Notes: generated by a model not told the origin, from the sequence alone. Positions 30,926-63,764 are shown, counted from the stretch's first letter. The stretch: 64,000 nucleotides of DNA from an uncultured Dehalococcoidia bacterium (GCA_964565775.1 CAZMGB010000009.1:65062-129061), one strand, 5' to 3'. Made by a program: numbers and translations.

Positions 30926-30937
30926 CGAGGCCTCCAA

Positions 30938-46883: not shown

Positions 46884-47245
46884 CGAGCGACCCTTGTCTT
46901 TCACTTGCTGGCGCACGCTCGTGACATGCAAGACTCACGCGGCCGACCTGGCCGGCGCAGTCTATACCCTTCCACTTCGATTATCGGAGGAAGCGGGCAA
47001 GTCATTATCGACCAGTGGGTATAGGGGGAGGCTCTACGCCCCTCGCGCGGCATGTCGAACAAGGGAGAAGCGTGGTCCTGACCTTCGATTGACATAAGCA
47101 CAGGCGTCGGTGGCGGAGCTTCTCGAGTCCAGCGGCAGGCGGGCGGCGCGTACCCGGGCTCGCGCGGAAGAGCCATCCTTCGGCGGCCGGCGGTTGTCAA
47201 ACCGGTCCGGAGCGCGGATGATGGGGCGTGGAAAGGAGGTGCGTG

Positions 47246-47668: not shown

Positions 47669-47671
47669 CGG

Positions 47672-48085
47672 CTATTCGCCGATAACCTTGACCACCACCC
47701 GTTTCCGCCGCTGACCGTCAAACTCGGCGTAGAAGACCTGCTCCCACGGCCCCAGGTCGAGCTTGCCCTCGGTGACTGGCAGCAGCGCCTGGTGGTGGAC
47801 AAGGGTGCGCTTGAGGTGGGCGTCGCCGTTGTCCTCGCCCGTTCGATGGTGCTTGTACTCGGGCCGGAAGGGCGCGAGCGTCTCCAGAAGCTCCCAGAAG
47901 TCCTGCCAGAGGCCCTCCTCGTGGTCGTTGACCCAGATGCCGGCCGTGATGTGCATGGCGCTCACGAGGCAGAAGCCCTCCTGAATCCCGGACTCGCGGA
48001 CGGCAGCCTCGACGTCTTGAGTGACGTTGATCAGGTCACGACGCGTCTTGGTGTCGAACCACAGGTACTGGGTATGACTCTTCAT
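47672..48085 (-). CDS. YjbQ family (UPF0047) protein, second paralog
   Basis: [29 protein letters not shown]...[26 protein letters not shown]...[26 protein letters not shown] matches the YjbQ fold. ATG at 48085 within track ORF 47672-48154. Confidence 0.7.
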
Positions 48086-48348
48086 AGCACCTCTCTCCAA
48101 GCTCGCCGGGAGGCCCCCTGATGGATGACCGGTGCCCCTTCGCTTCCCGTGCAATTGTACTCCGACCTGTCGACGACCGCTGACCCTTCGCTTCTCGCAA
48201 AGATGTGGTGTGTGAGCACAAGCGCTTGACAGGAGGAGGGGCGCCAGTGTATGCTTGGGCGGACGGTATACGGCAACCGCTTGCCGTATGGCATCGCCCA
48301 GACCGTGTGCGGTACCGGTTGAGGCCCAGGGCCGAGGAGACCTCGCGT

Positions 48349-48900
48349 ATGTCGAACAACCACCCCGACCGCACTACACCGGGCGTAGCTGCCTTCCCCG
48401 ATGTCGTCGTTTTCAGATGCGCGAATAGCTCACGCACGGGCGCGGCGCTCTCATCCGCCGTCGGCCGGCGGCGTCTGGGGGCCGGCCCGGAGTGGCCCAT
48501 TCCGGTACGGGAGGTTGTGCTTCCATGCACGGGAAAGCTGCAGCCGGAGCATCTCCTGAAGGCGTTCGAGGCGGGCGCGGACGCGGTCTGCGTCATTGCC
48601 TGTGCTCAGGACAACTGCCACTACCTCGAGGGAAGCCGGCGTGCGGAGCGGCGGGTCGAGTACGTGAGGGCGCTGCTTGACGAAGTAGGCCTGGGCGGCG
48701 AACGGCTGATGGTTTTCCACCTACCCGGATCGGCGCAGGAGGACATGGCGCTTCTACTCGCCCCACGAGGGAGTGCGCCCAGCACGCGGCTGAGCGAGGA
48801 AGAGCTCGGCTCACGGGTGGCCGCCATACGGGAGAGTGTCATGGCTGGGCTTAACGCTCTGCGACCGAATCCGCTGCGCCAGAGCGAAGCGACCGCCTGA
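48349..48900 (+). CDS. mvhD: MvhD/FlpD-like hydrogenase iron-sulfur subunit D (copy 1)
   Basis: [16 protein letters not shown]...[43 protein letters not shown] is the MvhD Cys pattern (C..C...C..TG....LL.AF..GAD.V.V..C....CHY). ATG at 48349 within track ORF 48205-48900. Confidence 0.7.
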
Positions 48901-48931
48901 CCGTGTGGCGAATCTTGGTGGGACCAGTCGA

Positions 48932-49837
48932 ATGGGAGCAGGATCAACACTCGCCGACGTATTGCGATCGGGGCGACTGGCCGTCACCGCTGAGTGCGTC
49001 CCGCCGCGCTCGGCGGATGCTGAGATCATCAGGAAGCAGGCAGCTTCTTTCCCCCCGGCCTTGGACGCCGTCGTGGTGGTGGACAATCGCGAAGAGATCG
49101 GCGCATCTGCCCTGGCTTGCTCCTCCCTCCTGGCAGCCGAGGGAAAGGAGCCGATCCTCACCATCCTAACGCGCGACCGGAACAGGATCGCCCTCCAGTC
49201 CGATGTCCTCGGCGCAGCGATGCTCGGCGTCAGGAACGTCCTTTGCCTCTCCGGAGACCATCAGTCCCTGGGTGTGTGCCCGGAGGCGGCGGCCGCTTTC
49301 GACATCGACTCCGTCCAGCTGATCCAAGCGCTCACGATGATGCGCGACGAGGGCGTCCTTCTCGGCGACAGGCCGCTACAGTCCAGGCCAGCGCTCTTCG
49401 TAGGTGCGGCGACGCATCCCTACCTTCGCCCGCTGGAACTCGGTCTCATCGGATTGCGAAAGAAGGTGGAGGCGGGCGCCCAGTTCCTGTTCACCCAGCC
49501 CGTGTTCGACGTTGAGGGCTTGACTGAGTGGATGAGCGCCGTGCGGGAGGTCGGCCTTCACGAGCGCACGTACATCATCGCGAGCGTGCGCCCGCTGGCA
49601 AGCGCCGAGCAGGCCGAGGCTCTGCGAACGCAGCGAAGGGCGGCCGCGATTCCCGATGGTCTGATAGCCCGGCTGCGTGACTCCAAAGAACCGGCGCGCG
49701 AGGGCATAGCAATCTGTGCTGAGATCGCGGTTCGGGTCAAGGACATCGAGGGAGTGCGGGGCGTCCACATCCTTTGCGATGGATCGGTTAGGGCCGTGGC
49801 GGAGGTCATTCAGCAGGCGGGTCTTTCTAGCCGATAG
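48932..49837 (+). CDS. metF: methylenetetrahydrofolate reductase, acetogen-type catalytic subunit MetF
   Basis: 302 aa TIM-barrel. LAVTAECVPP...NVLCLSGDHQSLG...AQFLFTQPVFDVE is the MTHFR family signature. No C-terminal regulatory domain, as in Moorella-type MetF. ATG at 48932 within track ORF 48836-49837. Confidence 0.75.
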   Translation: MGAGSTLADVLRSGRLAVTAECVPPRSADAEIIRKQAASFPPALDAVVVVDNREEIGASALACSSLLAAEGKEPILTILTRDRNRIALQSDVLGAAMLGVRNVLCLSGDHQSLGVCPEAAAAFDIDSVQLIQALTMMRDEGVLLGDRPLQSRPALFVGAATHPYLRPLELGLIGLRKKVEAGAQFLFTQPVFDVEGLTEWMSAVREVGLHERTYIIASVRPLASAEQAEALRTQRRAAAIPDGLIARLRDSKEPAREGIAICAEIAVRVKDIEGVRGVHILCDGSVRAVAEVIQQAGLSSR

Positions 49838-49877
49838 GCGGCAGGAGAAGGCATTGCCCGAACGGTATCACATTCCG

Positions 49878-51233
49878 ATGGCTCCAGCGCCCGCCCGGTT
49901 CCGCCCGGTCGGCAAGTACGGGACCGTCGACTGGCGCGAGGACTGCTCGGGCTGCACGAACTGTGTCAAGCCGCAGTGCACCTACGGCGTCTATCGATCA
50001 GAATACGACTTCAACCGCGACCCGTCATCGCCCATCGAACCACTGTTCGATTGCAGGGCGTGCCTGTCCTGCATTCAGGGCTGCACGAAGGGACTGCTGT
50101 CCCTGTCCATCAATGAGGAGTACCTTGCCCTCGGCGACGACTACTGGCAGCCCGCCATAATCGCCACCACCTGGCAGCAGGCCGAGACGGGCCGCATCCC
50201 GGTCTCGGGCGCGGGATACCGCGGACCGTTTCACGGGCCCGGATTCGACTCGATGTGGACGGACATGTCGGAGATCGTCCGTCCCACCCGAGACGGCATC
50301 CACGGGCGAGAGTACATCAACACGTCCGTCGATATCGGAGCGAAACCGACACGTCTAGTGTTCAACGCCGATGGAGAAATGGCGGAGGCAGAGCCACTCA
50401 TCGAGGTGCCGATCCCGGTTATCCTCGACGCCGCACCCTGGGGCTCGGAGGCCGAGGCGGTCTCCCGCGCGAGGATGGCGGCGGCGGCGACTCTGGGAAC
50501 GCTGAGCATAGTGCGACCGAACGATGTCGCCGCGGCAGCTTCGAACCACGTATCCTCCCTCGTTCCGCAGTTCGATGGGTTTGAGTTCGCCGGGCACGAG
50601 GCGCTGCTGCGACAGGTTCGCATGGTCGAGATCGGGGAAGGGTCAGACATCCTCTCCCGTGCCGAGCAGCTACGCTCGATTAACAGTAGCCTGGTTATCT
50701 GCGCCCGAGTCCCGCTCGAGCCCACAGTCACTGAACGCGTCTTCGCCTTATATGAGAACGGCATTAGGGTAGTCCACCTGTGCGCGGACACCCATGGCCG
50801 GGAAACCGGCACGGAGAGCCCGCGCTTCCTGAAAGACGCGCTGAGGGAAGTTCACACCCGGCTGGTCCAGGAGGGCGTGCGCGACGAGGTGACGCTGATC
50901 GCCAGCGGTGGCATCGCCCTCGCTGAGCACATGGCCAAGGCGATCATCTGCGGAGCCGATCTGGTGGCTCTCGGAGTTCCTTTAATGGTCGCGCTGGGGT
51001 GTCGTGTCTGCTGGGGGGATCACAATGGGTCATGTCCGGCGGACATTGAGAATGTCGACCCCTCATACGCCGCCCAGAGAATGGTGAACCTCATGGGCGC
51101 CTGGCACTCGCAGCTCATCGAGGTGCTGGGCGCTATGGGCATGCGCGAGGTGCGGCGCCTCCGTGGGGAGGTAGGGCGCGCGATGTTCCTGGAAGATCTT
51201 GAGCGAGAGGCATTCAGTGATCTACGCAACTGA
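49878..51233 (+). CDS. archaeal-type glutamate synthase FMN-domain (GltB domain 2) paralog, apparently degenerate
   Basis: Same architecture as the next gene: N-terminal Cys-rich ferredoxin-like region (DCSGCTNCVKPQCTYGVY...CRACLSCIQGC), then ATTWQQAETGRIP, then C-terminal IASGGIALAEHMAKAIICGADLVALGVPLMVALGCRVC. It lacks the GGMSFGS and TGEGG catalytic loops. Confidence 0.55.
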   Translation: MAPAPARFRPVGKYGTVDWREDCSGCTNCVKPQCTYGVYRSEYDFNRDPSSPIEPLFDCRACLSCIQGCTKGLLSLSINEEYLALGDDYWQPAIIATTWQQAETGRIPVSGAGYRGPFHGPGFDSMWTDMSEIVRPTRDGIHGREYINTSVDIGAKPTRLVFNADGEMAEAEPLIEVPIPVILDAAPWGSEAEAVSRARMAAAATLGTLSIVRPNDVAAAASNHVSSLVPQFDGFEFAGHEALLRQVRMVEIGEGSDILSRAEQLRSINSSLVICARVPLEPTVTERVFALYENGIRVVHLCADTHGRETGTESPRFLKDALREVHTRLVQEGVRDEVTLIASGGIALAEHMAKAIICGADLVALGVPLMVALGCRVCWGDHNGSCPADIENVDPSYAAQRMVNLMGAWHSQLIEVLGAMGMREVRRLRGEVGRAMFLEDLEREAFSDLRN

Positions 51234-52782
51234 GCGCACAGGCGTCGAGGCCCTCCACGCACGCGCCGGCAGGACGCCACAGCGCGCGGTGGAGCGCGAA
51301 GTGCGCGTGACGCCCGACCGCTATCGTAACCCGATCGGCAGGTACAAGGTGCGGCGGAGCGCCGGCTGTCGTTCATGTGGGCAATGCGTGGAGCTCTGCC
51401 CGTACGGTGTTCACGTGAAGCCTCCCGGATACAGCCTGACGCTGCGCCCTCGTGACCACCTGTGCATCGGGCCCAGTTGCGCTGAGACCGATCACTACTG
51501 CATCGAGCACTGCCCGAACCACGCGCTCTCCCTGGCGCGAAATCCCACGGCCGACGCCATCGGCGACCCGCGCTGGACGTCCGACCTGCTTCTCTCCACC
51601 TGGCATCAGGCCGAGACGGGCCACAGCCCGACGGGCGGCCTTGAGTTCCGGCACGGCGCCTCCGGCGGGGGGTTCGACAAACTGCGCTTTCGCTTCCCGG
51701 AGAAGCCCTCGGTCGCGCTGGACGAGAGCGAGATCGACACGGGGCTCGACCTGAACCGGCGCAACGACGACCGGCCGCGTCTGCGCATTGACCTGCCCAT
51801 CTACGGCGGCGGGATGTCATTCGGCTCCGTGAGCATCCATGTGATGCTCGCCAGAGCGCGAGCGGCGACCGCCTGGAACACCTTCACCTGCACCGGTGAA
51901 GGCGGGTACCCACAGCGTCTCGAGCCCTACGACGACCATGTGATCACACAGGTCGCCACCGGGCTGTTCGGCGTGCGTGAGGAGACGATTCAGAGGGTGC
52001 GCGTCGTCGAGTTCAAGTACGCCCAGGGTGCGAAGCCCGGCCTCGGCGGCCACCTCCTGGGCGACAAGAACACGCCCGATGTGGCCCGCATGCGCCAGGC
52101 AGTCGTGGGCAACGCCCTCTTCTCGCCCTTCCCGTTTCACAGCGTCTACTCGGTCGAAGACCACAAGAAGCACCTGGACTGGATCAAGGCAACGAACCCG
52201 AAGGCGCTCGTATCCGTCAAGGTCTCGACGCCTACGGACGTAGACATGGTGGCGGTAGGGAGCTACTACGCCGGTGCCCACATCATCCACCTGGACGGCA
52301 GCTACGGCGGCACAGGCGCTGCGCCCGACATCGCCAAGAAGAACATCGCCATGCCGATCGAGTATGCCATACCGATAGTGCACAAGTTTCTGGTCGCGGA
52401 AGGCATCCGCGACGAAATCGTCCTCATAGCGAGCGGCGGGATACGGACGGCCTACGACGTGCTGAAGTCGATCGCCCTCGGCGCGGACGGCGTCGTGACC
52501 GGCACGGCGGAGCTCGTGGCGCTGGGCTGCATCCGCTGTGGCGGCTGCGAGAGCGGCCGCGGATGCGCGCGGGGCATCGCAACCACCGACCGAGAGCTCA
52601 CGCTCCAGGTGGACATCGACTGGGCAACACAGAGGCTCATCAACCTGTTCGCGGCCTGGCGCGAGGAGTTCGTTGGCGTTCTCCGGCAGTTCGGCATGAG
52701 GAGCATCGCCGAGCTGCGGGGGCGCACGGACTGCCTCTACCACCTGGACTACGCGAAGGAGGGCGAGGCGACCGGTGCTTGA
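51199..52782 (+). CDS. archaeal-type glutamate synthase FMN-binding subunit (GltB domain 2 with N-terminal [4Fe-4S] region)
   Basis: LPIYGGGMSFGSVS...FTCTGEGGYP...KYAQGAKPGLGGHLLG...IASGGIRTAYDVLKSIALGADGVVTGTAELVALGCIRCGGCESGRGC aligns motif-for-motif with the FMN/3Fe-4S domain of GltB (compare 11684-16231). N-terminal CRSCGQCVELCP and CIEHCP motifs. Confidence 0.75.
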   Translation: MSERHSVIYATERTGVEALHARAGRTPQRAVEREVRVTPDRYRNPIGRYKVRRSAGCRSCGQCVELCPYGVHVKPPGYSLTLRPRDHLCIGPSCAETDHYCIEHCPNHALSLARNPTADAIGDPRWTSDLLLSTWHQAETGHSPTGGLEFRHGASGGGFDKLRFRFPEKPSVALDESEIDTGLDLNRRNDDRPRLRIDLPIYGGGMSFGSVSIHVMLARARAATAWNTFTCTGEGGYPQRLEPYDDHVITQVATGLFGVREETIQRVRVVEFKYAQGAKPGLGGHLLGDKNTPDVARMRQAVVGNALFSPFPFHSVYSVEDHKKHLDWIKATNPKALVSVKVSTPTDVDMVAVGSYYAGAHIIHLDGSYGGTGAAPDIAKKNIAMPIEYAIPIVHKFLVAEGIRDEIVLIASGGIRTAYDVLKSIALGADGVVTGTAELVALGCIRCGGCESGRGCARGIATTDRELTLQVDIDWATQRLINLFAAWREEFVGVLRQFGMRSIAELRGRTDCLYHLDYAKEGEATGA

Positions 52783-55384
52783 TGCGGCTGACCGACTGAT
52801 TCGATCACGGGCGGAGATGTTCGACGGGCGCCCGCCCATCATCGCCCCGCGCGCCGCAGACGAGGGGGGATGCGGCGTCACCGGATTCGCCTGCTCCATC
52901 CCCGTGCGCGGCCGCCACATCTATGCACCCTCCTTGCAGATGCACAACCGAGGCAACGGCAAAGGCGGCGGCATAGCTGCCGTTGGGCTCGTCCCGGAGG
53001 ACATCGGCGTGCCACAGGAGGTGCTCGACACGCACTACATGGTGCAGGTCGCCCTGCTCGACCCGTCGGCCCGCGCCGATGTAGAGCGGGAGTGCATCCA
53101 GCCTGTCTTCGATATCGCTCTCTCCACGCGGGCGCCGACCATGGACGACTACCGCGACGTGCCGGGCCTCGAGGTTCAGCCGCCCGATGTCCATCGCTAC
53201 CTGGTGCGCGTCAAGCCCGACGTCCTGCGGGCGTTCGCCGAGAAGAACGGCCTGGGCGATCTTCCTCCGCGTGACCTCGAGGACGAATTCGTCTACCGCA
53301 ACTCCATGCGTCTGAACGAGACCTTCTACGCCTCACTCGGCGACAAGAAAGCATTCGTGCTCTCGCACGGGCGGAACCTCCTCGTCTTCAAGATCGTTGG
53401 CTACGCCGAGCAGATCGTCCAGTACTACCAGCTCGAAGACCTGCACGCACACGTCTGGATCGCCCACCAGCGCTACCCGACGAAGGGCCGCGTCTGGCAC
53501 CCCGGCGGCGCACATCCTTTCGTTGGCCTGAACGAGGCCCTGGTTCACAACGGCGACTTCGCCAACTATCACTCGGTGAGCGAGTACCTCCTTCAGCGCA
53601 ACATCCGCCCGCAGTTCCTCACTGATACCGAGGTCTCTGTCCAGCTCTTCGACCTGTGGTCAAGGGTGTACAAGTACCCGTTGGAGTACGTCATCGAGGC
53701 GCTCGCACCCACAACGGAGCACGACTTTGATCACCTCCCCGAGGAGAAACAGCGCATCTACCGCCGCATCCAGGCGACGCACATCCACGGCTCTCCGGAT
53801 GGCCCCTGGTTCTTCATCATCGCGCGCAGCCTGCCTGACCAGAAGCAGTACCAGTTGCTGGGGATCACGGACACCGCGATGCTGCGCCCGCAGGTCTTCG
53901 CGCTTTCCGAGGGTGACGTTCAGGTCGGGCTCATCTGCTCCGAGAAGCAGGCAATTGACGCCACGCTCCGCAGCCTGGGGGAGGAGGACCAGCGCTTCTG
54001 CCCCATCGCGGACCGATACTGGAACGCTCGCGGTGGCAGCCACACCGACGGCGGCGCATTCGTCTTCACCATTACCGACGAAGGGGACCGCAGGGCTCTT
54101 ACCTGCACAGACAAGTTCGGCCGAGCCGTATCAGTTGGAGGCGCCCGCGTCCGCTGCGACCTCGCCCCGCCTGACATGTCCGGCGGACGCTCCCGCTCGA
54201 TACGCGACTTCGTCCGCACCGCGCTTCAGAGAAGCGATGCCCTCGGCCTGTACAGCCAGACGATCGAGAACCTTCCGGCATGGGAGCCGGGCGGGCTTCG
54301 CGAGTTCTGCAATGCGGTGTGCGAGGAAGCGGACAGCGGCCCGGCGAGAACGACCGCCATCGAGGCGCTCACCATGCTCCACGATCGCCGGTATGACACA
54401 GGCGACAAACGGAGGAGCTCTGTCCTCCGGGTTCTGAACGAGGCGCTGACGCGTCTGTTCGAGGGTGCGCCGCCCTTCGGCTCCGGCGGGAGGGGCCTCC
54501 ACCGGCGCGTAGACTGGGCGACACGAGAGCTCCTCGCAGCACCGCAGCCGGGGGAAGAGGTGCTCGTTGTCAGCGCTGAGCGCTTCCCACCCGAGGGCGG
54601 CGACTGCGATGCCGTCCTCCTGCGCCGCGCCTATGACCTGGGCTGGCGGCGCTTCATCTGCTACGGATATCGCGGTCAGCGTTTCACCGGCTGCGGACTG
54701 GGGCCGGACACGGCCGACGTCCGGATCGACGTCTACGGGAGCTCCGGCGACTACCTCGGCTCCGGCATAGACGGCCTCTCGATCTTCGTGCACGGCAACG
54801 GCCAGGATCAGCTCGGCCAGATCATGAATCGCGGCAAGCTCGTCGTTTACGGCGATGTCGGCCAGACGTTCCTTTACGGCGCGAAGGGCGGCGAGGTGTA
54901 CGTTCTGGGCAACGCCGCCGGCCGCCCCTTGATCAACGCCGTCGGTCGCCCGCGGGTCGTCATCAACGGCACCTGCCTTGACTTCCTCGCCGAGGCGTTC
55001 ATGGCGGGCGACCCTCTCGACGGCGGCGGCTTCGCTATCCTCAACGGCATCGAGTTCGATGATCACGGCCGCCTGATTCCGCAGCCGACGCCTTACCCGG
55101 GCGGCAACCTGTTCTCTCTTGCCTCCGGCGGGGCGATCTACATCCGCGATCCGCGCCGACAGGTCGTCGAGGCGCAGCTCAACGGCGGCGAATTCGTCTC
55201 GCTTTCAGAGGAAGACTGGCGTCTTATCCTTCCCTTCCTCGAGGAGAACGAGCGGCTGTTCGGCGTCTCCGTTGGGGAGCTTCTCACCGTCGAGGGAGAG
55301 CTTCGCGAGCCGGAGGAGGTCTATCGCAAGGTGCGGACTGTGAAGCTTGACGTCCTCGCCGCGCAAGCGGGGAGCGCCATATGA
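52775..55384 (+). CDS. fused class II glutamine amidotransferase domain + glutamate synthase GXGXG (alpha-subunit C-terminal) domain protein (archaeal GltA+GltC-like)
   Basis: N-terminal Ntn-type region around EGGCGVTGFACS. Typical GATase II residues (HQRYPTKG...HPF..NGDFANY). C-terminal beta-helix with repeated G.G motifs (CYGYRGQRFTGCGLG...YGSSGDYLGSGIDG...HGNGQDQLG...YGDVGQTF.YGAKGGEVYVLGNAAG) as in the GltB C-domain. Confidence 0.75.
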   Translation: MLDAADRLIRSRAEMFDGRPPIIAPRAADEGGCGVTGFACSIPVRGRHIYAPSLQMHNRGNGKGGGIAAVGLVPEDIGVPQEVLDTHYMVQVALLDPSARADVERECIQPVFDIALSTRAPTMDDYRDVPGLEVQPPDVHRYLVRVKPDVLRAFAEKNGLGDLPPRDLEDEFVYRNSMRLNETFYASLGDKKAFVLSHGRNLLVFKIVGYAEQIVQYYQLEDLHAHVWIAHQRYPTKGRVWHPGGAHPFVGLNEALVHNGDFANYHSVSEYLLQRNIRPQFLTDTEVSVQLFDLWSRVYKYPLEYVIEALAPTTEHDFDHLPEEKQRIYRRIQATHIHGSPDGPWFFIIARSLPDQKQYQLLGITDTAMLRPQVFALSEGDVQVGLICSEKQAIDATLRSLGEEDQRFCPIADRYWNARGGSHTDGGAFVFTITDEGDRRALTCTDKFGRAVSVGGARVRCDLAPPDMSGGRSRSIRDFVRTALQRSDALGLYSQTIENLPAWEPGGLREFCNAVCEEADSGPARTTAIEALTMLHDRRYDTGDKRRSSVLRVLNEALTRLFEGAPPFGSGGRGLHRRVDWATRELLAAPQPGEEVLVVSAERFPPEGGDCDAVLLRRAYDLGWRRFICYGYRGQRFTGCGLGPDTADVRIDVYGSSGDYLGSGIDGLSIFVHGNGQDQLGQIMNRGKLVVYGDVGQTFLYGAKGGEVYVLGNAAGRPLINAVGRPRVVINGTCLDFLAEAFMAGDPLDGGGFAILNGIEFDDHGRLIPQPTPYPGGNLFSLASGGAIYIRDPRRQVVEAQLNGGEFVSLSEEDWRLILPFLEENERLFGVSVGELLTVEGELREPEEVYRKVRTVKLDVLAAQAGSAI

Positions 55385-55962
55385 GCACGGTAGCAGGAGA
55401 GCTGATCCGCGTGCCCCCCGCTATGGGTGCCTTCGTGCGCGAGGTGGAGGCGGCCTCCGGCGCGAGCATAGCACTCTGTCTCCAGTGTCAGAAGTGCACC
55501 TCCGGCTGCCCCGTGGCCGCGGACGCCGACATCAAGCCGCACGAGATTATCCGGCTCGTCCAGCTAGGGGAGCGAGATGAGGTCCTTTCGAGCCGCATGA
55601 TCTGGGAATGCACGTCGTGCGAGACGTGCTGGACGCGCTGTCCGCAAGCGGTGGCACTCCCGGCGGCTATCGATGCCCTGCGCAGGCTGTCGCGCGCCGC
55701 CGCGAAGGTCACTCCGGAGACCAGAGTCCCAGCTTTCAACGACATCTTTCTCGGCTCAGTGCGGCAGATGGGCCGGGTGTATGAGATAGGGCTCATGGCG
55801 GCGTTCAAGCTCCGCACGAAGGACCTCCTTCAGGACTTTAACAAGCTGCCGGCGATGCTTCGCAAAGGCAAGCTGGCGCTGCTGCCCGTCTTCGTACGCG
55901 GCCGTTCGGACCGAACGCGCCTGTTCCGGCGCATCGAAGGGTCCGGAGGTGAGAAGCGATGA
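55381..55962 (+). CDS. hdrC: heterodisulfide reductase subunit C (two [4Fe-4S] motifs)
   Basis: CLQCQKCTSGCP and CTSCETCWTRCP ferredoxin-type motifs in a 193-aa protein. Overlaps the upstream gene by 4 nt. Confidence 0.8.
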   Translation: MSTVAGELIRVPPAMGAFVREVEAASGASIALCLQCQKCTSGCPVAADADIKPHEIIRLVQLGERDEVLSSRMIWECTSCETCWTRCPQAVALPAAIDALRRLSRAAAKVTPETRVPAFNDIFLGSVRQMGRVYEIGLMAAFKLRTKDLLQDFNKLPAMLRKGKLALLPVFVRGRSDRTRLFRRIEGSGGEKR

Positions 55963-56867
55963 GCTACGTCTTCTATCCCGGCTGCTCGCTTGAGTCGACC
56001 GCGAAGAGCTATCACGTTTCCACGAAGGCCGTCGCCCGCGCGCTGGGGCTGGAACTGCCGGAACTGCCCGACTGGATCTGCTGCGGCTCGACGGCCGCTC
56101 ACCAGTCGAACTCCCTGCTGTCGCTGGCGCTTCCGGCGAAGAACTTGCTCGCGGCCTCCGGCAAGACAGTGGCCGTGTGCTGCGCCGCTTGCTACAGCCG
56201 CCTGAAGGTGGCGAATGACCGGATCGCCAACGATGCGGGCACCCGTTCCCGGGTCGCCGATGCCCTGGGCAGCGACTACGACGGCTCTACGCCGGTGAAG
56301 CACCTGCTCGAGATCCTGAGGGACGAGATCGGGCTCGACGAGATCGCCAAGCGCGTGTCGAAGCCGCTGGCGGGCCTGCGTGTCGCAGCCTACTACGGCT
56401 GCCTGCTCTTGCGTCCACCGGAAGTAATGCGGTTCGACGACCCGGAGAACCCGACGCTGCTGGATAACGTCCTTGCCGCCGCTGGCGCTGAGCCTCTGCA
56501 ATGGCCTCACAAGACGGAGTGCTGCGGCGCGAGCTACTCGATCACGAAGGTCGAGATCGTGCAAAGGCTGTCGTATGACATCCTGGCGATGGCCCGCGAC
56601 TCGGGGGCCGACTGCATTGCCGCAGCCTGTCCCCTCTGTCAGCTCAACCTGGACATGCGGCAGAGAGAGATCGAGGTGCGGTTCGGCGACAGACTGGGCC
56701 TGCCCGTGCTCTACTTCACCCAATTGCTCGGCCTGGCTCTCGGCCTCAAGCCGAATGAGCTCGGGCTGAGCAGCCTGATAGTGGACCCCATGCCGCTCTT
56801 GGCGAAGAGGGGCCTCCTGGCGCACGCCGGGTTGAAGGCGGCGGCGCCCGCGAACGTACCGGAATAG
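55959..56867 (+). CDS. hdrB: heterodisulfide reductase subunit B (two CCG domains)
   Basis: YPGCSL...WICCGSTAAH and YYGCLLLRP...ECCGASYS...CPLCQLN are the duplicated CCG-domain Cys patterns of HdrB. Confidence 0.85.
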   Translation: MSYVFYPGCSLESTAKSYHVSTKAVARALGLELPELPDWICCGSTAAHQSNSLLSLALPAKNLLAASGKTVAVCCAACYSRLKVANDRIANDAGTRSRVADALGSDYDGSTPVKHLLEILRDEIGLDEIAKRVSKPLAGLRVAAYYGCLLLRPPEVMRFDDPENPTLLDNVLAAAGAEPLQWPHKTECCGASYSITKVEIVQRLSYDILAMARDSGADCIAAACPLCQLNLDMRQREIEVRFGDRLGLPVLYFTQLLGLALGLKPNELGLSSLIVDPMPLLAKRGLLAHAGLKAAAPANVPE

Positions 56868-56871
56868 ACCG

Positions 56872-59800
56872 ATGAAACAGGACATACCGACCGGCGCAGT
56901 GCTCGTCTACGGGGCAGGGATAGCAGGCATTCAGGCGTCGCTCGACCTGGCCGAATCCGGCTTCAAGGTGTACCTCGTCGAGCGCTCGCCCGCTATCGGC
57001 GGCAGGATGTCCCAGCTCGACAAGACTTTCCCCACCGGCGACTGCGCGATGTGCATTCTGTCGCCGAAGCTCGTCGAGTGCGGGCGCAACAAGAACATCG
57101 AGATCATCACCCTCGCCGAGATGGAGAGCATCACCGGCGAGCCCGGCCAGCTTGACGTGCGCATCAGGAGGAATCCGCGCTACGTCGACCTCCAGAAGTG
57201 CAACGCCTGCGGTGACTGCGCCGAGGTCTGTCCAGTATCCCTGCCCAGCGAGTTCGACCGGGGGCTCGGCGAAAGGAAGGCTATCTTCCGCCCCTACCCG
57301 CAGGCGATCCCCAACGTGTACGGCATCTCGAAGGCCGACGGCACCGCACCCTGTAGACACGCATGTCCGGCGGGCGTGAACGCGCACGGCTATGTCGCGC
57401 TGGTCGGCCAGGGCAGGTTCAAGGAAGCCTACGACCTCATCCGCGAGCGCTGTCCGCTGCCGGCAGTCTGCGGCCGAATCTGCCAGCACCCCTGCGAGGA
57501 CCAGTGCAATCGAGGCGATATAGACGAGCCTGTCGCCATCCGCGACCTGAAGCGCTTCGCCACCGACTGGGTCTATACCAACCGGGAGCAGTTTGCGGAG
57601 GAAGCCGAAACCGCATCGCCCTGGAGCGAGCTGCGCGAAGAGAAGATCGCGATCATCGGCGGCGGGCCGGCCGGCCTTACGGCCGCCCACGATCTGAGCC
57701 GGATGGGGTACAGGGTGACGATCTTTGAGGCGATGCCGTTCCTGGGTGGGATGCTGCGCCTCGGCGTGCCCGAGTACCGGCTCCCGAGGGATGTGCTCGA
57801 CTTCGAGATAGACCAGCTACTCAACGACCGCATCGAGGTGAGGTTGGACTGCCGGATCGGGCGCGACGTGACCCTGGACGGCCTCCGCAGCGACGGCTAC
57901 GCCTCGATATTCATCGCCTGCGGCGCTCACAGGAACCTGCGACTGGAAGTGGAGGGGAGTGAGTACGAAGGTGTAGTTTACGGGCTCGACTTCTTGAGGA
58001 GCGTGAACCTGGGCGAGCAGGTTCGCGTCGGGAAGCGAACGGCCGTGATCGGCGGCGGAAACGTGGCGATGGACGCCGCGCGCGCCGCCCTGCGGCTGGG
58101 CTCGGATGAAGTGACGATAGTCTACCGCCGCTCGCGCGCCGAAATGCCGGCGCTCGATGAGGAGGTCCATCTCGCCGAGGAAGAGGGAGTCAGGTTCCAC
58201 TTGCTGGCCGCCCCGGTCCGCATGATCGGCGATGATAGGGGCTCCGTCGTCGCGATGGAGTGCCTGCGGATGAAGCTGGGTGAGCCGGACGCGAGCGGCC
58301 GGCGGCGACCCGAGCCGATCGAGGGGTCGAACTTCACCATCGAGGCGGACACCGTCATCATCGCGATAGGGCAGACGGCTGATCTCGATGGCCTGCCATT
58401 GGGCTCGCGCGGAAGGATCGACTGTGACGACTCGCTTGCCACGGAGATGCCGGGCGTGTTCGCCGGCGGGGACGTGGTCCTGGGGCCGGCCTCGTTCGTC
58501 GACGCGATGGGGCACGGTCACCGCGCCGCCGAGGCGATCCACCGTTATCTCCGCGGCGAAAGCGTAAGGGATGCGGCGCCGGCCGGCGGGGCCGCTGACG
58601 AGAAGCTCGCCCCGAACCCTCTGCCGTCCGCCCCGCACCAGCCTCGACGTCCCATGCCGCAGTCGCCGGTCGACGAGCGCAAACGGGACATGCGCGAGAT
58701 CGATCTCGGCTATTCCGAGGAGGATGCCATCGCCGAAGCGAGGCGCTGCCTCAACTGCGGGCTCTGCTCCGACTGCCGCCTCTGCGAAAAGGTATGCGAT
58801 CCCGGCGCCATCTTCCACGACATGCGGCCGGAATCGGAGGTGCTTCGGGTCGGCGCCGTCATCCTCACCCCCGGCTCCGAAGAGATGCAGCCGTCCCTTC
58901 GCGGGGAGTACGGCCACGGCCGCTACGACAACGTGCTTTCGTCTGTCCAGTTCGAGCGCATGCTCAGCGCTTCGGGGCCGACGGAAGGCACCGTGCAGAG
59001 ACCGTCCGACGGCCAGCCCGTGAAGCGGATCGCCTTCATCCAGTGCGTCGGCTCGCGCGATAGCGCTCGCGGCAACGGCTACTGCTCCTCGATATGTTGC
59101 ATGTCGGCGACGAAAGAGGCACTCGTCGCAATGGAGCACATTCCGGGGCTCGAGATTGCCATCTTCTGCATGGACATCCGCGCCTTCGGTAAGGAGTTCG
59201 ACCGCTACGTCGACCGGGCGCGCAGCGAGCACGGCGTGCGATACGTCCGGGCTATCCCCTCGCGCGTGGTCGAGATGCCGGGCACGAAGAACCCGCGTGT
59301 GCGCTATTTCGACGAGCACGGGGACGACCGTCAGGAGGAGTTCGATCTTGTGGTCCTTTCGGTCGGCATGAAGCCCGGCGCCAGCGTCACGGAGCTCGCC
59401 GAGCGGCTCGGGATTGACCGCAACCAGTTCGGCTTCTGCGAGACGGATCGGCTTACGCCGGTGGTCTCGTCACTGCCGGGTGTCTTCGTGGCCGGCGCCT
59501 TCCAGGAGCCGAAGGACATACCGGAATCGGTGGCGCAGGCCAGCGCCGCAGCGGCCAGCGCAATGGAGCTGCTTGTGCGCGGGCGGGGCACGCTGGCCCG
59601 CCGCCACGAGTATCCCGAGGAGCGAGACGTCACGGACGAAGAGCCGCGAATCGGCGTCTTCATCTGCCACTGCGGGCACAACATCGCCTCGGTGGTGGAC
59701 GTCGAGGCGGTCGCGCGCGAGGCGGCGGAGCTGCCAAACGTCGTCTACTCCGAGACCGATCTCTTCACGTGCTCCGACACCAGTCAGGCCCGACTCAAAG

Positions 59801-61326
59801 ACCTGATCCTCCAGCATCGCCTGAACCGAGTCGTTATCGCCTCGTGCTCGCCGCGCACGCATGAGGTGCTGTTCCAGGAGACGCTCCGGGAGTCTCGGCT
59901 GAACCCCTACCTCTTCGCGATGACGAACATCCGTGATCAATGCTCGTGGGTGCACCGCGACGATCCGGCTCGGGCTACGGAAAAGGCTTGCGACCTCATG
60001 CGCATGGCGGTGGGGCGCGCACGATGGCTTCGCTCGCTGGAAACCGGGCAGGTCCCGATCACGCGCGCGGCGCTCGTCCTCGGGGGCGGCCTGGCAGGCA
60101 TGACCGCTGCGCTCTCGATAGCGGACCAGGGCTTCGAGGTGCATCTCGTGGAGAAGGAGCCCGAGCTGGGCGGCAACCTTCGCTTCATTCACTACACGCT
60201 GGAGCGAGATGACATCCAGGAGTTCGCTGCGGACCTGGTCGGCCGCATTCGCTCCCATCCGCTCATCACCCTCTACCTCGATTCGAAGGTGACGGAGGTT
60301 TCCGGCCACGTCGGGAACTTCAGGTGCCAGATCGAAGGTGCCGACGGCGCGAAGACGGTCAACCACGGCGTGACAATCATCGCCACCGGCGGCGTCGAGC
60401 GGCCGACCGAACAGCACCTTCGCGGCAGGCACGAGCGCGTGGTCACCCAGCGGGAGCTGGAGGCGCAGTTGGCCGGCGGCGGCTTGCCCCCGGAGCTGGG
60501 CGAACGGCCGACCGTCGTCATGATACAGTGCGTCGGATCGCGAACGGAGGAGAACCCCTATTGTAGCCGCGTCTGCTGCTCGGAGGCCGTCAAGAACGCG
60601 CTGGCGATCAAGGCGCAGCGGCCAGAGGCGCAGGTGATCGTCCTCAACAAAGACATCCGCACCTACGGCTTCCGCGAGACGTATTTCCAGATGGCGCGCC
60701 AGGCCGGGGTACTGTTCATCCGCTATCCGGAAGAGCAAGAGCCCGAGACATTCGATGACCAGGGCCCGGTTGTGCGCGTCACGGACGCGAGCACCCGCCG
60801 CCAGCTCCTGCTGCGGCCCGACCTGCTCGTGCTGAGCACAGGAATCGCACCCGCGCCCGACAACCCGGAGCTGTCGGCGATCTTGAGGACGTCGCTGACT
60901 GCCGACGGCTTCTTCCTCGAAGCGCACCCCAAGCTCCGTCCGGTGGACCTGGCGAGCGAGGGCGTATTCGTCTGCGGGCTCGCGCACTCGCCGCGCTTCA
61001 TGGACGAGACGATCGTCCAGGCCCGGGCAACGGCCGGCCGCGCCGCCACGATCCTGTCGCGCCCGCACCTCAAGATCGGCGGCCAGGTGGCCCGCATCGA
61101 TCCTCTCGAATGCACTGCCTGCCTGACGTGCATCAAGGTGTGCCCCTATGACGCGCCCACGATCAACGACCGGCAGAAAGTGGAGATTCAGGCCGCGAAG
61201 TGCATGGGCTGCGGTAGCTGTGTCGCTTCCTGTCCGGCGAAGGCCATCCATCTACAACACCAGGAAGAGCGACAGCTCATCGCCATGCTCGATGAGTTGC
61301 TTGCCGTTCCCAAGGTGACGGCATGA
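56872..61326 (+). CDS. hdrA: HdrL-like large heterodisulfide reductase A homolog: HdrA N-domain + ferredoxin + GltD/NfnB-like NAD(P)H:FAD domain + two HdrA-type Cys-cluster domains + C-terminal 2x[4Fe-4S]
   Basis: 1484 aa. HdrA start VYGAGIAGIQASLDLAESGFKVYLVE...GDCAMC. Inserted GltD small-subunit-like region (CRHACPAGVNAHGY...CGRICQHPCEDQCNRG...IAIIGGGPAGLTAAHDL...). HdrA motifs CVGSRDSARGNGYCSSICC and CVGSRTEENPYCSRVCC. Ferredoxin motifs CNACGDC..CP, CLNCGLCSDCRLC, CTACLTCIKVCP, CMGCGSCVASCP. Confidence 0.8.
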   Translation: MKQDIPTGAVLVYGAGIAGIQASLDLAESGFKVYLVERSPAIGGRMSQLDKTFPTGDCAMCILSPKLVECGRNKNIEIITLAEMESITGEPGQLDVRIRRNPRYVDLQKCNACGDCAEVCPVSLPSEFDRGLGERKAIFRPYPQAIPNVYGISKADGTAPCRHACPAGVNAHGYVALVGQGRFKEAYDLIRERCPLPAVCGRICQHPCEDQCNRGDIDEPVAIRDLKRFATDWVYTNREQFAEEAETASPWSELREEKIAIIGGGPAGLTAAHDLSRMGYRVTIFEAMPFLGGMLRLGVPEYRLPRDVLDFEIDQLLNDRIEVRLDCRIGRDVTLDGLRSDGYASIFIACGAHRNLRLEVEGSEYEGVVYGLDFLRSVNLGEQVRVGKRTAVIGGGNVAMDAARAALRLGSDEVTIVYRRSRAEMPALDEEVHLAEEEGVRFHLLAAPVRMIGDDRGSVVAMECLRMKLGEPDASGRRRPEPIEGSNFTIEADTVIIAIGQTADLDGLPLGSRGRIDCDDSLATEMPGVFAGGDVVLGPASFVDAMGHGHRAAEAIHRYLRGESVRDAAPAGGAADEKLAPNPLPSAPHQPRRPMPQSPVDERKRDMREIDLGYSEEDAIAEARRCLNCGLCSDCRLCEKVCDPGAIFHDMRPESEVLRVGAVILTPGSEEMQPSLRGEYGHGRYDNVLSSVQFERMLSASGPTEGTVQRPSDGQPVKRIAFIQCVGSRDSARGNGYCSSICCMSATKEALVAMEHIPGLEIAIFCMDIRAFGKEFDRYVDRARSEHGVRYVRAIPSRVVEMPGTKNPRVRYFDEHGDDRQEEFDLVVLSVGMKPGASVTELAERLGIDRNQFGFCETDRLTPVVSSLPGVFVAGAFQEPKDIPESVAQASAAAASAMELLVRGRGTLARRHEYPEERDVTDEEPRIGVFICHCGHNIASVVDVEAVAREAAELPNVVYSETDLFTCSDTSQARLKDLILQHRLNRVVIASCSPRTHEVLFQETLRESRLNPYLFAMTNIRDQCSWVHRDDPARATEKACDLMRMAVGRARWLRSLETGQVPITRAALVLGGGLAGMTAALSIADQGFEVHLVEKEPELGGNLRFIHYTLERDDIQEFAADLVGRIRSHPLITLYLDSKVTEVSGHVGNFRCQIEGADGAKTVNHGVTIIATGGVERPTEQHLRGRHERVVTQRELEAQLAGGGLPPELGERPTVVMIQCVGSRTEENPYCSRVCCSEAVKNALAIKAQRPEAQVIVLNKDIRTYGFRETYFQMARQAGVLFIRYPEEQEPETFDDQGPVVRVTDASTRRQLLLRPDLLVLSTGIAPAPDNPELSAILRTSLTADGFFLEAHPKLRPVDLASEGVFVCGLAHSPRFMDETIVQARATAGRAATILSRPHLKIGGQVARIDPLECTACLTCIKVCPYDAPTINDRQKVEIQAAKCMGCGSCVASCPAKAIHLQHQEERQLIAMLDELLAVPKVTA

Positions 61327-61796
61327 TCGAATCCGACCGCCGCTCAACGGCCGAAGCCGTGGCCGATCGAGAGTGCGAGATCGTGGCATTCTGCTGCAAT
61401 TTCTGCGCCTATGCCGCGGCCGATCTCGCCGGCGCGAGACGCATGCAATACCCGGCGAACGTGCGCATCGTACACGTGCCCTGCACGGGCGAGGTCGAGG
61501 TGGAGCATCTCCTCGCTGCCTTCGAACGGGGAAGCGACGGAGTTCTGGTGGCGGGCTGCCTCGAACGGGGATGCCACTTCGTCGAGGGGAACCTGCGCGC
61601 GAAGCGTCGCGTCGAGGCCGTGCGGCAGACGCTCGACGAGATCGGCCTCGGGCGAGAGCGCCTGCGGATGGTCAATCTGTCCGCCTCGGAAGCGCCCACA
61701 TTCGTAGCGCGGATAAGGGAAATGGTAGACACGATAAGCAGCCTTGGCCCTAACCCGCTACGCACATCATCAACCAGGGAGCGGAGCCCGAAATGA
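61323..61796 (+). CDS. mvhD: MvhD/FlpD-like iron-sulfur subunit D (copy 2)
   Basis: EIVAFCCNFCAYAAADLAGARRMQYPANVRIVHVPCTGEVEVEHLLAAFERGSDGVLVAGCLERGCHF is a full MvhD Cys motif set. Start overlaps the hdrL stop (ATGA). Confidence 0.8.
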   Translation: MIESDRRSTAEAVADRECEIVAFCCNFCAYAAADLAGARRMQYPANVRIVHVPCTGEVEVEHLLAAFERGSDGVLVAGCLERGCHFVEGNLRAKRRVEAVRQTLDEIGLGRERLRMVNLSASEAPTFVARIREMVDTISSLGPNPLRTSSTRERSPK

Positions 61797-62461
61797 TAGT
61801 AGCAAGTCGAAAGCCGATCTCGGAGATCAAGGGTGCGCTTGCGCGCCACGATAAGGTTCTATTCGTGGGCTGCGGGACGTGCGTGACCGTATGCCTTGCC
61901 GGCGGAGAGCGCGAGGTAGGCATCATGTCCTACGCCATGCGCATGGCGCGGCGGCTGGAGGGACGGCCCCTCGAGATCGAACAGGTCACGATCGAGCGCC
62001 AGTGCGAAAACGAGTTCATCCAGGAGCTCGCTCCCGCAGCGGAACGCAACGAGGCGATCCTGTCGTTCGGGTGCGGCGCCGGCGTGCAGGCGATCGCCGA
62101 GCGATTCCCGGAGAAGCCGGTCTACGCGGCGCTCAATACGCAGTTTCTCGGCATCCTCGAGGAGCAGGGGGTCTGGACGGAGAAGTGCCTGGGGTGCGGG
62201 TCGTGCATGCTCTCGGACTTCGGCGGCATCTGCCCGATTACGCGCTGCGCGAAGCGTCTGCTGAACGGCCCTTGCGGCGGTTCGAGCGAGGAGCGATGCG
62301 AGGTCGACCCCGAGCGACCCTGCGCCTGGCAGCTCATCTACCGCCGGCTGAAGGCCATCGGCCAGCTAGACAACCTGGAACGCATCGTCCCGGCGAGAGA
62401 CTGGCGGCCGAGCTGGCACGGCGGTGCGCGAACGGTGGTGCGAGAGGAGCACCGGATCTAG
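61793..62461 (+). CDS. metV: methylene-THF reductase-associated zinc/FeS subunit MetV
   Basis: VLFVGCGTCVTVC...ILSFGCGAGV...EKCLGCGSCM...ICPITRCAKRLLNGPCGGS...RPCAW is the Cys-rich pattern and the LNGPCGG motif characteristic of MetV. Confidence 0.7.
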   Translation: MIVASRKPISEIKGALARHDKVLFVGCGTCVTVCLAGGEREVGIMSYAMRMARRLEGRPLEIEQVTIERQCENEFIQELAPAAERNEAILSFGCGAGVQAIAERFPEKPVYAALNTQFLGILEEQGVWTEKCLGCGSCMLSDFGGICPITRCAKRLLNGPCGGSSEERCEVDPERPCAWQLIYRRLKAIGQLDNLERIVPARDWRPSWHGGARTVVREEHRI

Positions 62462-62550
62462 CTTCGAGCCTTTCACGGACCTTATCAGGGCACCACTATC
62501 GCACATCCGGGACGGCGGAGCCGAGCGTCGACCGGGCGATGAACCCTCCC

Positions 62551-63546: not shown

Positions 63547-63764
63547 GCAGTTTCCTCCGCCAGCCGACATCCAGCGTGGTAGCTCCACCCCTGCACCGGG
63601 CTGGCAATCGACGCTATTGTAGCGCGTTTCTTGCGTCCCCCCAAGCCCGCGCGCACCAGCGGTCGCTCGGCGGGTCGGTCTTCAGGGTTCGGGCTCGAAG
63701 GCCGACTCATATAGGTGGACGTAATGAAGTCGGGTTTCCCTCCGGAGTATGGAGAGGTGCAGCA

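Follow-up and report, generated by a model that had tools for sequence, protein, structure and literature searches.

Close relatives of the genes reported here have been described from acetogens, in which MetF and MetV form one enzyme (as cited in PMC7325909, PMC6085437) and a MetFV-HdrABC-MvhD methylene-tetrahydrofolate reductase is known from Moorella thermoacetica and Sporomusa ovata (Mock et al. 2014, as cited in PMC7325909, PMC5736913, PMC7483475), with a second electron acceptor that is still missing (PMC7325909, PMC7483475). A further point of reference is glutamate synthase (GltS, also referred to as GOGAT) split over several polypeptides, which for archaea is recorded only as open reading frames (ORFs) for individual domains (2021 iron-sulfur flavoenzyme review, PMC8097209), and of which F420-dependent candidates (FGltS) with an FrhB-type F420 input were noted in methanogens and ANME (anaerobic methanotrophic archaea; PMC3448663, PMC9012536). 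Finally, HdrL was named in Desulfobacterium autotrophicum (PMC2702500), and a few archaea have a type III HdrA into which a GltD domain is inserted (PMC12054007). Here we describe a ten-gene operon that brings genes related to these systems together, located at positions 48349–62461 of a 64,000-nucleotide stretch (referred to as the window) from an uncultured Dehalococcoidia bacterium (GCA_964565775.1 CAZMGB010000009.1:65062-129061). Judged from its genes and their conservation, the operon may encode one nitrogen-regulated, multi-subunit iron-sulfur (Fe-S) flavoenzyme built around a glutamine-dependent glutamate synthase, a reading that we consider evenly balanced between right and wrong.

Gene content of the operon

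All ten ORFs lie on the + strand in the order mvhD1-metF-gltBx-gltB-gatGX-hdrC-hdrB-hdrL-mvhD2-metV, and each has a specific family match in Pfam. This bears out a first-pass annotation of the same DNA, which had listed ten same-strand genes with these domains in a tightly packed operon; the measured junctions are, in order, +31, +40 (or +16), –35, –8, –4, –4, +4, –4 and –4 nt, with the +40 between metF and gltBx shrinking to +16 when gltBx starts at TTG 49854. Overlaps were found at six of the nine junctions, not at seven as had been counted before (the accompanying list also gave six), and 4-nt start/stop overlaps join gatGX-hdrC-hdrB and hdrL-mvhD2-metV. Long spurious ORFs are common at the G+C content of the window (~65%). 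The ten-gene arrangement is far beyond chance, because the same order recurs in 15 unrelated metagenome-assembled genomes (MAGs) from five phyla.

Three consecutive genes are of the glutamate synthase type (referred to as the trio). The second of these, gltB (51199–52782, with an uncertain start at either TTG 51199 or GTG 51217), is predicted to encode the catalytic flavin mononucleotide (FMN) or synthase subunit, preceded by an N-terminal 2x[4Fe-4S] domain (Fer4 and a full Glu_synthase domain, PF01645, 303 bits). Its best match in the PDB is the alpha subunit of A. brasilense GltS (residues 857–1172, E 1e-49), the match spanning the cluster-binding Cys region, and its FMN domain is ~40% identical to GltS across the substrate and cluster motifs. 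GltB keeps KxAQGAKPGxGG, GGTGA and SGG, and KYAQGAKPGLGGHL, GGTGAAP, SGGIR and C.RC..CESGRGC are near-invariant in 61 GltB orthologs. The three Cys residues that bind the GltS [3Fe-4S] cluster are kept and a fourth is added.

The gene before it, gltBx (49854–51233), encodes a degenerate GltS FMN-domain paralog that likewise carries an N-terminal 2x[4Fe-4S] ferredoxin domain. A TTG start at 49854, yielding a protein of 459 aa, is preceded by the Shine-Dalgarno sequence GGAGAAGG and is in line with most homologs as well as with the gene call of NCBI (P0123). Next to Fer4, GltBx has only a partial Glu_synthase match (PF01645, 66 bits, profile positions 259–368), confined to its C-terminal 100 aa, and it is 24–28% identical to GltB. 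The QGAKPG...SPPPHHD segment is missing in its entirety, as is GGTGA, and the protein has an invariant motif of its own (i.e., PVSGAGYRG..GFDS.WTDMSEIVRPTRDGIHGREYI) plus a C-terminal Cys triad. A low-confidence AlphaFold2 (AF2) model placed its core (residues 160–380) in a TIM barrel with a mean confidence score (pLDDT) of 62, and a fold search with it returned generic FMN/IMPDH TIM barrels only. GltBx is predicted to be unable to perform GltS chemistry, yet to be strongly selected, and probably serves as an electron wire or for docking instead of catalysis. Of the two genes that the first-pass annotation had called FMN-domain gltB, the second therefore stands as a full FMN domain with PF01645, the substrate/FMN motifs and the cluster Cys residues, whereas the first is a paralog without them.

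The third gene, gatGX (52775–55384), encodes an 869-aa protein predicted to combine a class II (Ntn) glutamine amidotransferase (GATase), a linker of ~300 aa and a GXGXG beta-helix. Its GTG start at 52775 is backed by the conserved N-terminus of homologs, which consists of a 32-aa leader followed by an invariant Cys33 in GGCGVTGFAC; HQRYPTKG, HNGDFAN and TDTEV are invariant as well, and alignment to GlmS showed the class II amidotransferase motifs R, HNG..N and TDTE to be kept. Assuming removal of the leader, GatGX has the catalytic Cys expected of a class II amidotransferase. The amidotransferase domain matched GATase_6 (PF13522, 31.9 bits), instead of GATase_2 (PF00310) as had been proposed, and the GXGXG domain matched PF01493 (50.5 bits, cutoff 32.5) and aligned to residues 1251–1387 of a classical GltB encoded elsewhere in the window. 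An AF2 model of GatGX, built from a 12-sequence alignment, was too poor for a fold search (pLDDT 50). Overall, the GltS models for FMN and GXGXG recognise the GOGAT-like ORFs, so that failure in the GltS models, which the first-pass annotation had named as a refutation, did not occur. Its comparison with a three-protein set of methanogens is contradicted by the presence of two FMN-domain paralogs (one of them dead) and of a fused GATase-GXGXG protein.

The trio is flanked by genes for MvhD, MetF and MetV. MvhD2 (61323–61796, overlapping the end of hdrL by 4 nt) is a canonical MvhD, i.e., a [2Fe-2S] adaptor to HdrA, with a match to the full PF02662 profile (163 bits) and conserved FCC..C, PCTG and GC...GCH motifs. 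MvhD1 (48349–48900) is an Fe-S protein of the same MvhD/FlpD family (PF02662, 86 bits) and 44% identical to MvhD2; it retains one Cys of the N-terminal CCxxC, and the conservation of this single-Cys change across 22 window-type loci/orthologs points to a modified cluster or to another partner. MetF (48932–49837; PF02219, 75 bits) is a distant homolog of methylene-tetrahydrofolate reductase (MTHFR), nearest to the YitJ/acetogen type (NCBIfam PRK08645 C-terminal domain, 152 bits). Alignment to Thermus MTHFR showed its GD, HP and TQ motifs to be kept, and 48 cluster-linked homologs share the E (taEC.pP), GD and TQ motifs. MetV, predicted to be the Fe-S partner subunit of MetF (PF12225, 129 bits), is encoded 12 kb from metF, at 61793–62461. 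Nearly all of its 13 Cys residues are conserved in 48 homologs, and it is 70–92% identical among window-type loci; no solved homolog of MetV was found.

The remaining three genes are of the heterodisulfide reductase type. HdrC (55381–55962) is a two-[4Fe-4S] subunit (Fer4_17/Fer4_8; TIGR03290 at 64 bits, below cutoff) with two CX2CX2CX3C motifs, and HdrB (55959–56867) has two CCG domains (PF02754; TIGR03288 at 196 bits, below cutoff) in which both C-x(n)-CC-x(n)-C..C motifs are intact. The CCG motif is the site of the non-cubane cluster in HdrB. HdrL (56872–61326, 1484 aa) is an HdrA interrupted at aa ~155–625 by an insertion of ~470 residues resembling GltD/NfnB, i.e., an NAD(P)H-FAD-2x[4Fe-4S] domain, and has a second HdrA-like half (aa ~1060–1484) ending in 2x[4Fe-4S]. 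In the PDB it matched HdrA (5odc) in four stretches (E 9e-184), and aa 154–640 were covered by NfnB-like entries (9bov, 9n5u, 4ylf, 5jca); the NCBIfam models HdrA2 and gltA-type also matched. GxGxxG motifs are located at 14, 263 and 1071, four CX2CX2CX3C motifs are present, and a second Rossmann motif reads GGGNVAMD...VYRRS (GXGXXA with YRR), which by the rule quoted in PMC12054007 points to an NADPH-type input domain. With mvhD2 as the next gene, this is the arrangement typical of HdrL/type III HdrA. The PDB, NCBIfam and Pfam matches thus bear out the proposed HdrA-NfnB fusion and the remaining domain calls. None of the proteins scored above its NCBIfam cutoff, and database labels read "glutamate synthase-related protein", "ferredoxin" or "hypothetical".

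Conservation of the trio, its partners and their nitrogen context

The GatGX family is large and unusually conserved: more than 7,700 database proteins matched, the top 120 being 68–100% identical, and when clustered at 50% most full-length members were represented by a handful of clusters. A scan with one genome per species placed the family in at least 575 species-level genomes. The best 80 of these at least 575 loci, all of them bacterial, were taken with 10-kb flanks (loci being cited below by L numbers), and the window proteins were mapped onto them by tblastn; because these loci are the most query-similar ones and not a random sample, the fractions that follow describe this branch. Of these, 39 have flanks of at least 5 kb on the upstream and at least 7.5 kb on the downstream side, and among the 39 mvhD was found 34 times, metF together with metV 33 times, hdrL 18 times and hdrCB 16 times, and the trio stood alone 4 times.

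The exact window order with all ten genes was present in 15 loci (Dehalococcoidia/Chloroflexia, Planctomycetota, Myxococcota, Acidobacteriota and Actinomycetota), and the same order recurred without hdrCB in 3 loci of Acidobacteriota, without an hdrL match in L019, and with zero hdr genes in L015. A second order, mvhD-metV-metF-trio, was seen in 10 loci (Desulfobacterales, Dehalococcoidales, Poribacteria), and a third, mvhD-trio-metV-metF, in two (L067, L070). For the second order, L071 and L051 point to carriers in culture, e.g., Desulfonema limicola or Desulfosarcina. Partial variants (L040, L063, L077) and the four loci with the trio alone (L005, L006, L036, L057) make up the rest. The partners therefore occur in three gene orders in at least seven phyla (i.e., Chloroflexota, Planctomycetota, Myxococcota, Acidobacteriota, Actinomycetota, Desulfobacterota and Poribacteria), and since all three orders keep the adjacency, it appears to be functional rather than merely inherited. 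The synteny in relatives on which the first-pass annotation had staked its proposal is thus present, and MvhD and MetFV are near-constant partners of the trio. Hdr is a facultative add-on of the window's branch, so that the earlier description of the enzyme as Hdr-coupled fits the window variant and not the family as a whole. Moreover, in two Desulfobacterota loci (L055, 12058–15057; L039, 4734–7472) a shorter HdrA adjoins the trio that matches HdrL residues 17–156 and 625–1477, i.e., without the GltD/NfnB-like insertion and hence without an NAD(P)H domain.

Fusion proteins bear on how the trio is assembled. In three unrelated MAGs, gltBx and gltB form a single ORF (~1,000 aa), namely in a Thermodesulfobacteriota (L073, 1186–4188), a Planctomycetaceae (L076, 7054–9996) and a Chloroflexi (L077, 6924–9905) genome. 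These gltBx-gltB fusions were the only ones in the 80 loci, in which no ORF joined MetF, MetV or MvhD to the trio. In addition, giant single-chain proteins of 2,200–3,150 aa (P0279, P0300, P0323, P0356 from a Candidatus Brocadiia MAG, P0386 and P0394) were found with the domain order GlcD-like FAD dehydrogenase (FAD_binding_4 + FAD-oxidase_C), Fer4, GltBx-like, GltB, GatGX. FAD_binding_4/FAD-oxidase_C is the family of glycolate and D-lactate dehydrogenases, and one of the giant proteins was annotated "alpha-hydroxy-acid oxidizing protein"; from their domains, the giant fusions look like a 2-hydroxyacid-driven version of the trio enzyme that is apparently undescribed. Because they carry GltBx, GltB and GatGX in one chain, they show that the trio, including the dead paralog, consists of parts of one enzyme, to which an exchangeable redox module attaches on the GltBx side. 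In the window, mvhD1-metF occupies the position held by the dehydrogenase module in the giant fusions.

A nitrogen-related context was found at the operon as well as in its relatives. The downstream neighbour (62551–63588, – strand, convergent with the operon) encodes an NrpR-family regulator (PF01995, 270 bits; PF08461, 72 bits), homologs of which are direct neighbours of the cluster in L002 and L044 (87% and 54% identity, respectively) and are located several kb away, on the upstream side, in L040 and L081. The NrpR of methanogens is a nitrogen repressor that senses 2-oxoglutarate. The NrpR homolog of the window is a probable regulator of the operon; the operator sequence known from methanogens (GGAA-N6-TTCC) occurs nowhere in the window, and a different perfect palindrome is present at the promoter. 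Clustering of neighbouring ORFs (a first pass of which was dominated by opposite-strand shadow ORFs of the high-GC DNA) placed CarA/CarB directly 3' of the cluster in eleven loci of the Desulfobacterota type, and eight loci were found to encode an Amt transporter. The locus L040 (1–20400) reads nrpR, a Glu_synthase-related gene, gdh, glnA, mvhD-gltBx-gltB-gatGX, nadE, glyA, carA, carB and purF, and in L063 glnA immediately precedes mvhD. The linked glnA passes the type I model TIGR00653 (560 bits vs. a cutoff of 429), and the purF and glyA neighbours were confirmed by family models. Glutamine-centred strings of the Desulfobacterota type were also seen in L031, L033, L035, L037, L041, L043, L063, L068, L078 and L081, and L040, a locus without metFV, encodes serine hydroxymethyltransferase, a producer of methylene-tetrahydrofolate.

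This context had been missed by the first-pass annotation, whose glutamate-synthase reading becomes much likelier because NrpR adjoins the operon and glnA, amt, carAB and purF accompany its relatives. A true role in the glutamine synthetase-glutamate synthase (GS-GOGAT) route would be the most economical reading of these genes.

The extent of the operon follows from its surroundings. The upstream neighbour, a UPF0047 gene (47672–48154), and the NrpR gene downstream both lie on the opposite strand, and a single + strand promoter-like site precedes the first gene, so that the unit appears to be delimited as first proposed; no convincing internal terminator was predicted. The promoter-like site (TTGACA-18-TATGCT, 48226–48255, + strand) agrees with the consensus at 10 of 12 positions, and no other + strand match lies in 47500–64000, the count of promoter matches (2 observed vs. 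1.7 expected) being not above chance; TTGACA/TATGCT-like boxes also lie 5' of the cluster in L002, L005, L006 and L057. Between this site and mvhD1, a perfect 9+9 inverted repeat (ATACGGCAA-N4-TTGCCGTAT, 48268–48289, + strand) was identified that occurs once in the window, against a chance expectation of 0.05. Relatives of the form CGG(C/T)AA-N4-TTGCCG occupy the equivalent position in Chloroflexota loci (L003 ~5466, L005 7034, L006 7042, L057 7032), trio-only loci included. In L003 and L006 the left arm carries a T, with which a G-U pair is still possible in RNA. The repeat could be either a candidate operator or a hairpin in the 5' untranslated region, and Rfam revealed no known RNA family in the window or the leader, nor a match to the repeat.

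Proposed enzyme and competing explanations

If the operon encodes a single enzyme, GatGX would hydrolyse glutamine at Cys33 once the 32-aa leader is removed, and the ammonia would be channelled to the FMN site of GltB, where 2-oxoglutarate would be aminated and the imine reduced by FMNH2 to yield glutamate. The four-Cys cluster site of GltB, replacing the [3Fe-4S] site of classical GltS, would relay electrons to this FMN. The N-terminal ferredoxin domains of GltB and GltBx would carry these electrons, with GltBx acting as wire and docking subunit, and MvhD and MetV would prolong the wire by docking on these domains; the chains of Cys motifs on GltB, GltBx, MvhD, MetV, HdrC and HdrL suffice for many Fe-S clusters. 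In the window variant, HdrL may feed the wire with electrons from NADPH taken up by its NfnB/GltD-like domain, which is the same kind of domain that feeds classical GltS. MetF would be a second catalytic flavin on the shared wire, at the methylene-/methyl-tetrahydrofolate couple, and HdrBC would offer a third, disulfide-type site. What the sequences show is gene content, conserved motifs and linkage, the nitrogen context and the trio fusions; we infer that MetFV, MvhD and Hdr physically associate with the trio, as well as the electron path, its direction at MetF, and bifurcation.

As to the latter, the HdrA-type FAD of HdrL may split an electron pair between high-potential acceptors and ferredoxin, and the parts list for such flavin-based electron bifurcation (i.e., HdrA-type FAD domains, a C-terminal 2x[4Fe-4S] domain, MvhD and HdrBC) makes it plausible. 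The glutamine + 2-oxoglutarate / 2 glutamate couple lies at ~ –70 mV (estimated from textbook values), in the range of the acceptors that drive known flavin-based bifurcations. With the couple estimated near this value, ferredoxin reduction by NADPH coupled to glutamate synthesis would be thermodynamically possible. A fully bifurcating glutamate synthase, in which NADPH enters at HdrL and the strongly exergonic reduction of glutamine + 2-oxoglutarate, and/or that of methylene-tetrahydrofolate, pulls the second electron of each pair uphill onto ferredoxin, is nevertheless a rather unlikely extension of the proposal.

Several observations weigh against a single glutamate-synthesising enzyme. The window also encodes a classical four-domain GltB (11684–16231, + strand, 1515 aa, with GATase_2, central, FMN and GXGXG domains), so there is no obvious need for a further enzyme in glutamate synthesis. 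The organism is thus predicted to have two GOGAT-type systems. The classical one has no adjacent small subunit, the gene after it (16355–17638, + strand) being metallo-beta-lactamase/alkyl-sulfatase-like and not gltD. Moreover, no Glu_syn_central domain (PF04898) was found in GatGX by Pfam, and hhalign of the GatGX profile against the window's classical GltB aligned the GXGXG part only, while the amidotransferase domain is PurF/GlmS-like and not of the GltS type. The partners are not obligatory, as 4 of the 39 loci have the trio without a partner and 1 of the 39 has it with mvhD only, and Hdr genes are missing from the flanks in about half of the loci, all within a branch chosen for its similarity to the query. 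Finally, a folate reductase sharing a wire with a glutamate synthase is puzzling, and the complex, its activity and a single transcript are predictions from the genes.

A somewhat unlikely alternative is that the operon encodes two separate co-transcribed enzymes, i.e., a Moorella-type MetFV-HdrABC(L)-MvhD reductase and an independent ferredoxin-dependent split glutamate synthase, which would be kept together because both reductases are anabolic and share a regulator or a reductant. Each half indeed resembles a known stand-alone system, the order hdrC-hdrB-hdrA-mvhD-metV being that of the acetogen cluster (PMC7325909, PMC5736913) and the trio standing alone in L005, L006, L036 and L057, and the ferredoxin domains of GltB and GltBx could accept electrons from free ferredoxin. 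Two such enzymes would, however, have to explain why the adjacency survives three independent gene orders in 33 of the 39 loci and seven phyla, why the trio and the hdr genes separate metF from metV, and why the trio keeps its mvhD in places where both MetFV and Hdr are missing from the vicinity (as in L040 and in several shorter-flank loci). The 4-nt overlap of gatGX and hdrC also argues against a division at this point, as do the fusion proteins, which indicate that the trio normally bears a dedicated donor module.

The fusion proteins could also be taken to mean that MetFV itself is the donor module, so that methyl-tetrahydrofolate would be oxidised to methylene-tetrahydrofolate and its electrons would drive glutamate synthesis, in parallel to the 2-hydroxyacid dehydrogenase module and with HdrL balancing the system with NADPH or ferredoxin. 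The slot N-terminal to GltBx, which holds a substrate dehydrogenase in the giant fusions, is here taken by mvhD-metF or mvhD-metV-metF, and the mvhD-metV-metF-trio loci lack, over 10 kb, any module that binds NAD(P)H. The methyl-/methylene-tetrahydrofolate couple lies at about –200 mV, and such a transfer would be downhill by roughly 100 mV (estimated from textbook potentials). We consider this donor role quite unlikely, however, because in the absence of a methyl-group source the same enzyme must make methyl-tetrahydrofolate, nitrogen-assimilation flux is a small sink, the NADPH-type input domain of the window variant makes a second donor unnecessary, and there is no biochemical precedent.

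Least probable, with only a slim chance of being right, is that the trio acts on another amide or imine (e.g., as an N-methylglutamate-synthase-like amidotransferase/FMN enzyme that passes a C1 unit on to folate and would thereby account for MetF). In favour of this are the non-PF00310 amidotransferase, the missing central domain, the change of one QGAKPGxGGQ residue to H in GltB, the otherwise puzzling folate link and the serine hydroxymethyltransferase gene of the L040 cluster; against it are neighbours such as true type I glutamine synthetase, glutamate dehydrogenase, CarAB, PurF, Amt and NrpR, and the ~40% identity of GltB to GltS noted above. Identity with N-methylglutamate synthase itself (MgsABC/GlxBCD) was rejected on gene context: adjacent glutamine-synthetase-like genes fall below the type III TIGR03105 cutoff, gamma-glutamylmethylamide synthetase and N-methylglutamate dehydrogenase are not among the neighbours, and no sarcosine-oxidase-like genes are among the recurrent neighbours.

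Returning to a glutamate synthase served by its conserved partners, the linkage names candidate donors (MvhD, MetV/MetF and HdrL) for split glutamate synthases, and a plug-in architecture of general kind is suggested for the enzyme by the giant dehydrogenase-GltBx-GltB-GatGX fusions. With its additional high-potential reductase, this naturally occurring variant of the acetogen enzyme also offers a handle on the roles of Hdr modules outside methanogens. Given the breadth of the family (at least 575 species-level genomes, from phyla of soil, peat, groundwater and marine sediment), the enzyme may bear on the cost of nitrogen assimilation in uncultured anaerobes. If the bifurcating version were true, energy-limited anaerobes would regain low-potential reductant from nitrogen assimilation, and the wiring would name a physiological partner for the long-puzzling MetFV-HdrABC-MvhD enzyme type.

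Elsewhere in the window, a SUF iron-sulfur assembly cluster (5489–10764, + strand; ABC ATPase, two SufB/D and a SufS-like aminotransferase) lies 5' of the classical gltB. A 1005-aa ORF (24538–27555, – strand) without a Pfam match at E <= 1e-5 adjoins type II/IV secretion ATPase and platform genes (28001–30982). Just before the operon region lie the genes of two large signalling proteins that are paralogs of each other (36854–41296, + strand, 1480 aa; 42924–46931, – strand, 1335 aa) with HAMP, several PAS, GAF, GGDEF and HD-GYP-type HD_5 domains.

Comparison with known systems

No description of a MetFV/MvhD/Hdr-glutamate synthase cluster was found in the full-text literature, with subscription-only titles outside the scope of the search, which agrees with the first-pass annotation, where no described complex of such composition was known. 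One close system is the acetogen reductase, all six families of which (MetF, MetV, MvhD, HdrA, HdrB and HdrC) are also present in the window operon. The two share the five-gene order hdrC-hdrB-hdrA-mvhD-metV, both HdrB CCG motifs and a MetF that is not of the E. coli type. In contrast to the six contiguous hdrCBA-mvhD-metVF genes of acetogens, however, metF of the window lies 12 kb upstream of metV and beside a second, derived mvhD, three GltS-type genes are placed between metF and hdrC, and HdrA takes the long HdrL form, in which a GltD/NfnB-like domain is inserted and another HdrA-like half follows. The context, too, is a different one, namely nitrogen assimilation in non-acetogens instead of a Wood-Ljungdahl cluster; no Wood-Ljungdahl gene was found among the ORFs annotated elsewhere in the 64-kb window, which are not all of its ORFs.

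With the classical GltBD of A. brasilense (PDB 1ea0, 2vdc, 6s6s), the window proteins share the FMN domain motifs and cluster Cys residues, a class II Cys1 amidotransferase, GXGXG and a GltD-type NADPH/FAD/2x[4Fe-4S] domain. These domains are rearranged over three proteins in the window, where the FMN protein has its own ferredoxin domain, the GATase is fused to GXGXG, a dead FMN paralog and a fourth cluster Cys are added, a central domain is not recognisable, and the GltD-like domain resides inside HdrA with MvhD, MetV and MetF as further additions. The archaeal-type split GltS is similar in having GltS domains on separate polypeptides, an N-terminal Fe-S domain on the FMN protein and an electron donor that is not established, but differs from the window type in that the latter has a fused GATase-GXGXG, two FMN paralogs and the MvhD/MetFV linkage, and in that its best 80 loci are bacterial.

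For HdrL/type III HdrA, the likeness consists of the NAD(P)H-binding GltD-like insertion in HdrA and the mvhD gene next to it, whereas the described cases sit by dsr or other genes or in methane-metabolising archaea, and not with GltS subunits or MetFV. FGltS, in turn, shares the principle of split GltS modules plugged into varying electron-input modules, with an FrhB-type F420 module there and MvhD/MetFV, with or without HdrL, in the window type. What appears to be new, as far as gene content can tell, is that known kinds of parts (i.e., the acetogen Hdr module, GltS chemistry and HdrL) are joined in one conserved operon.

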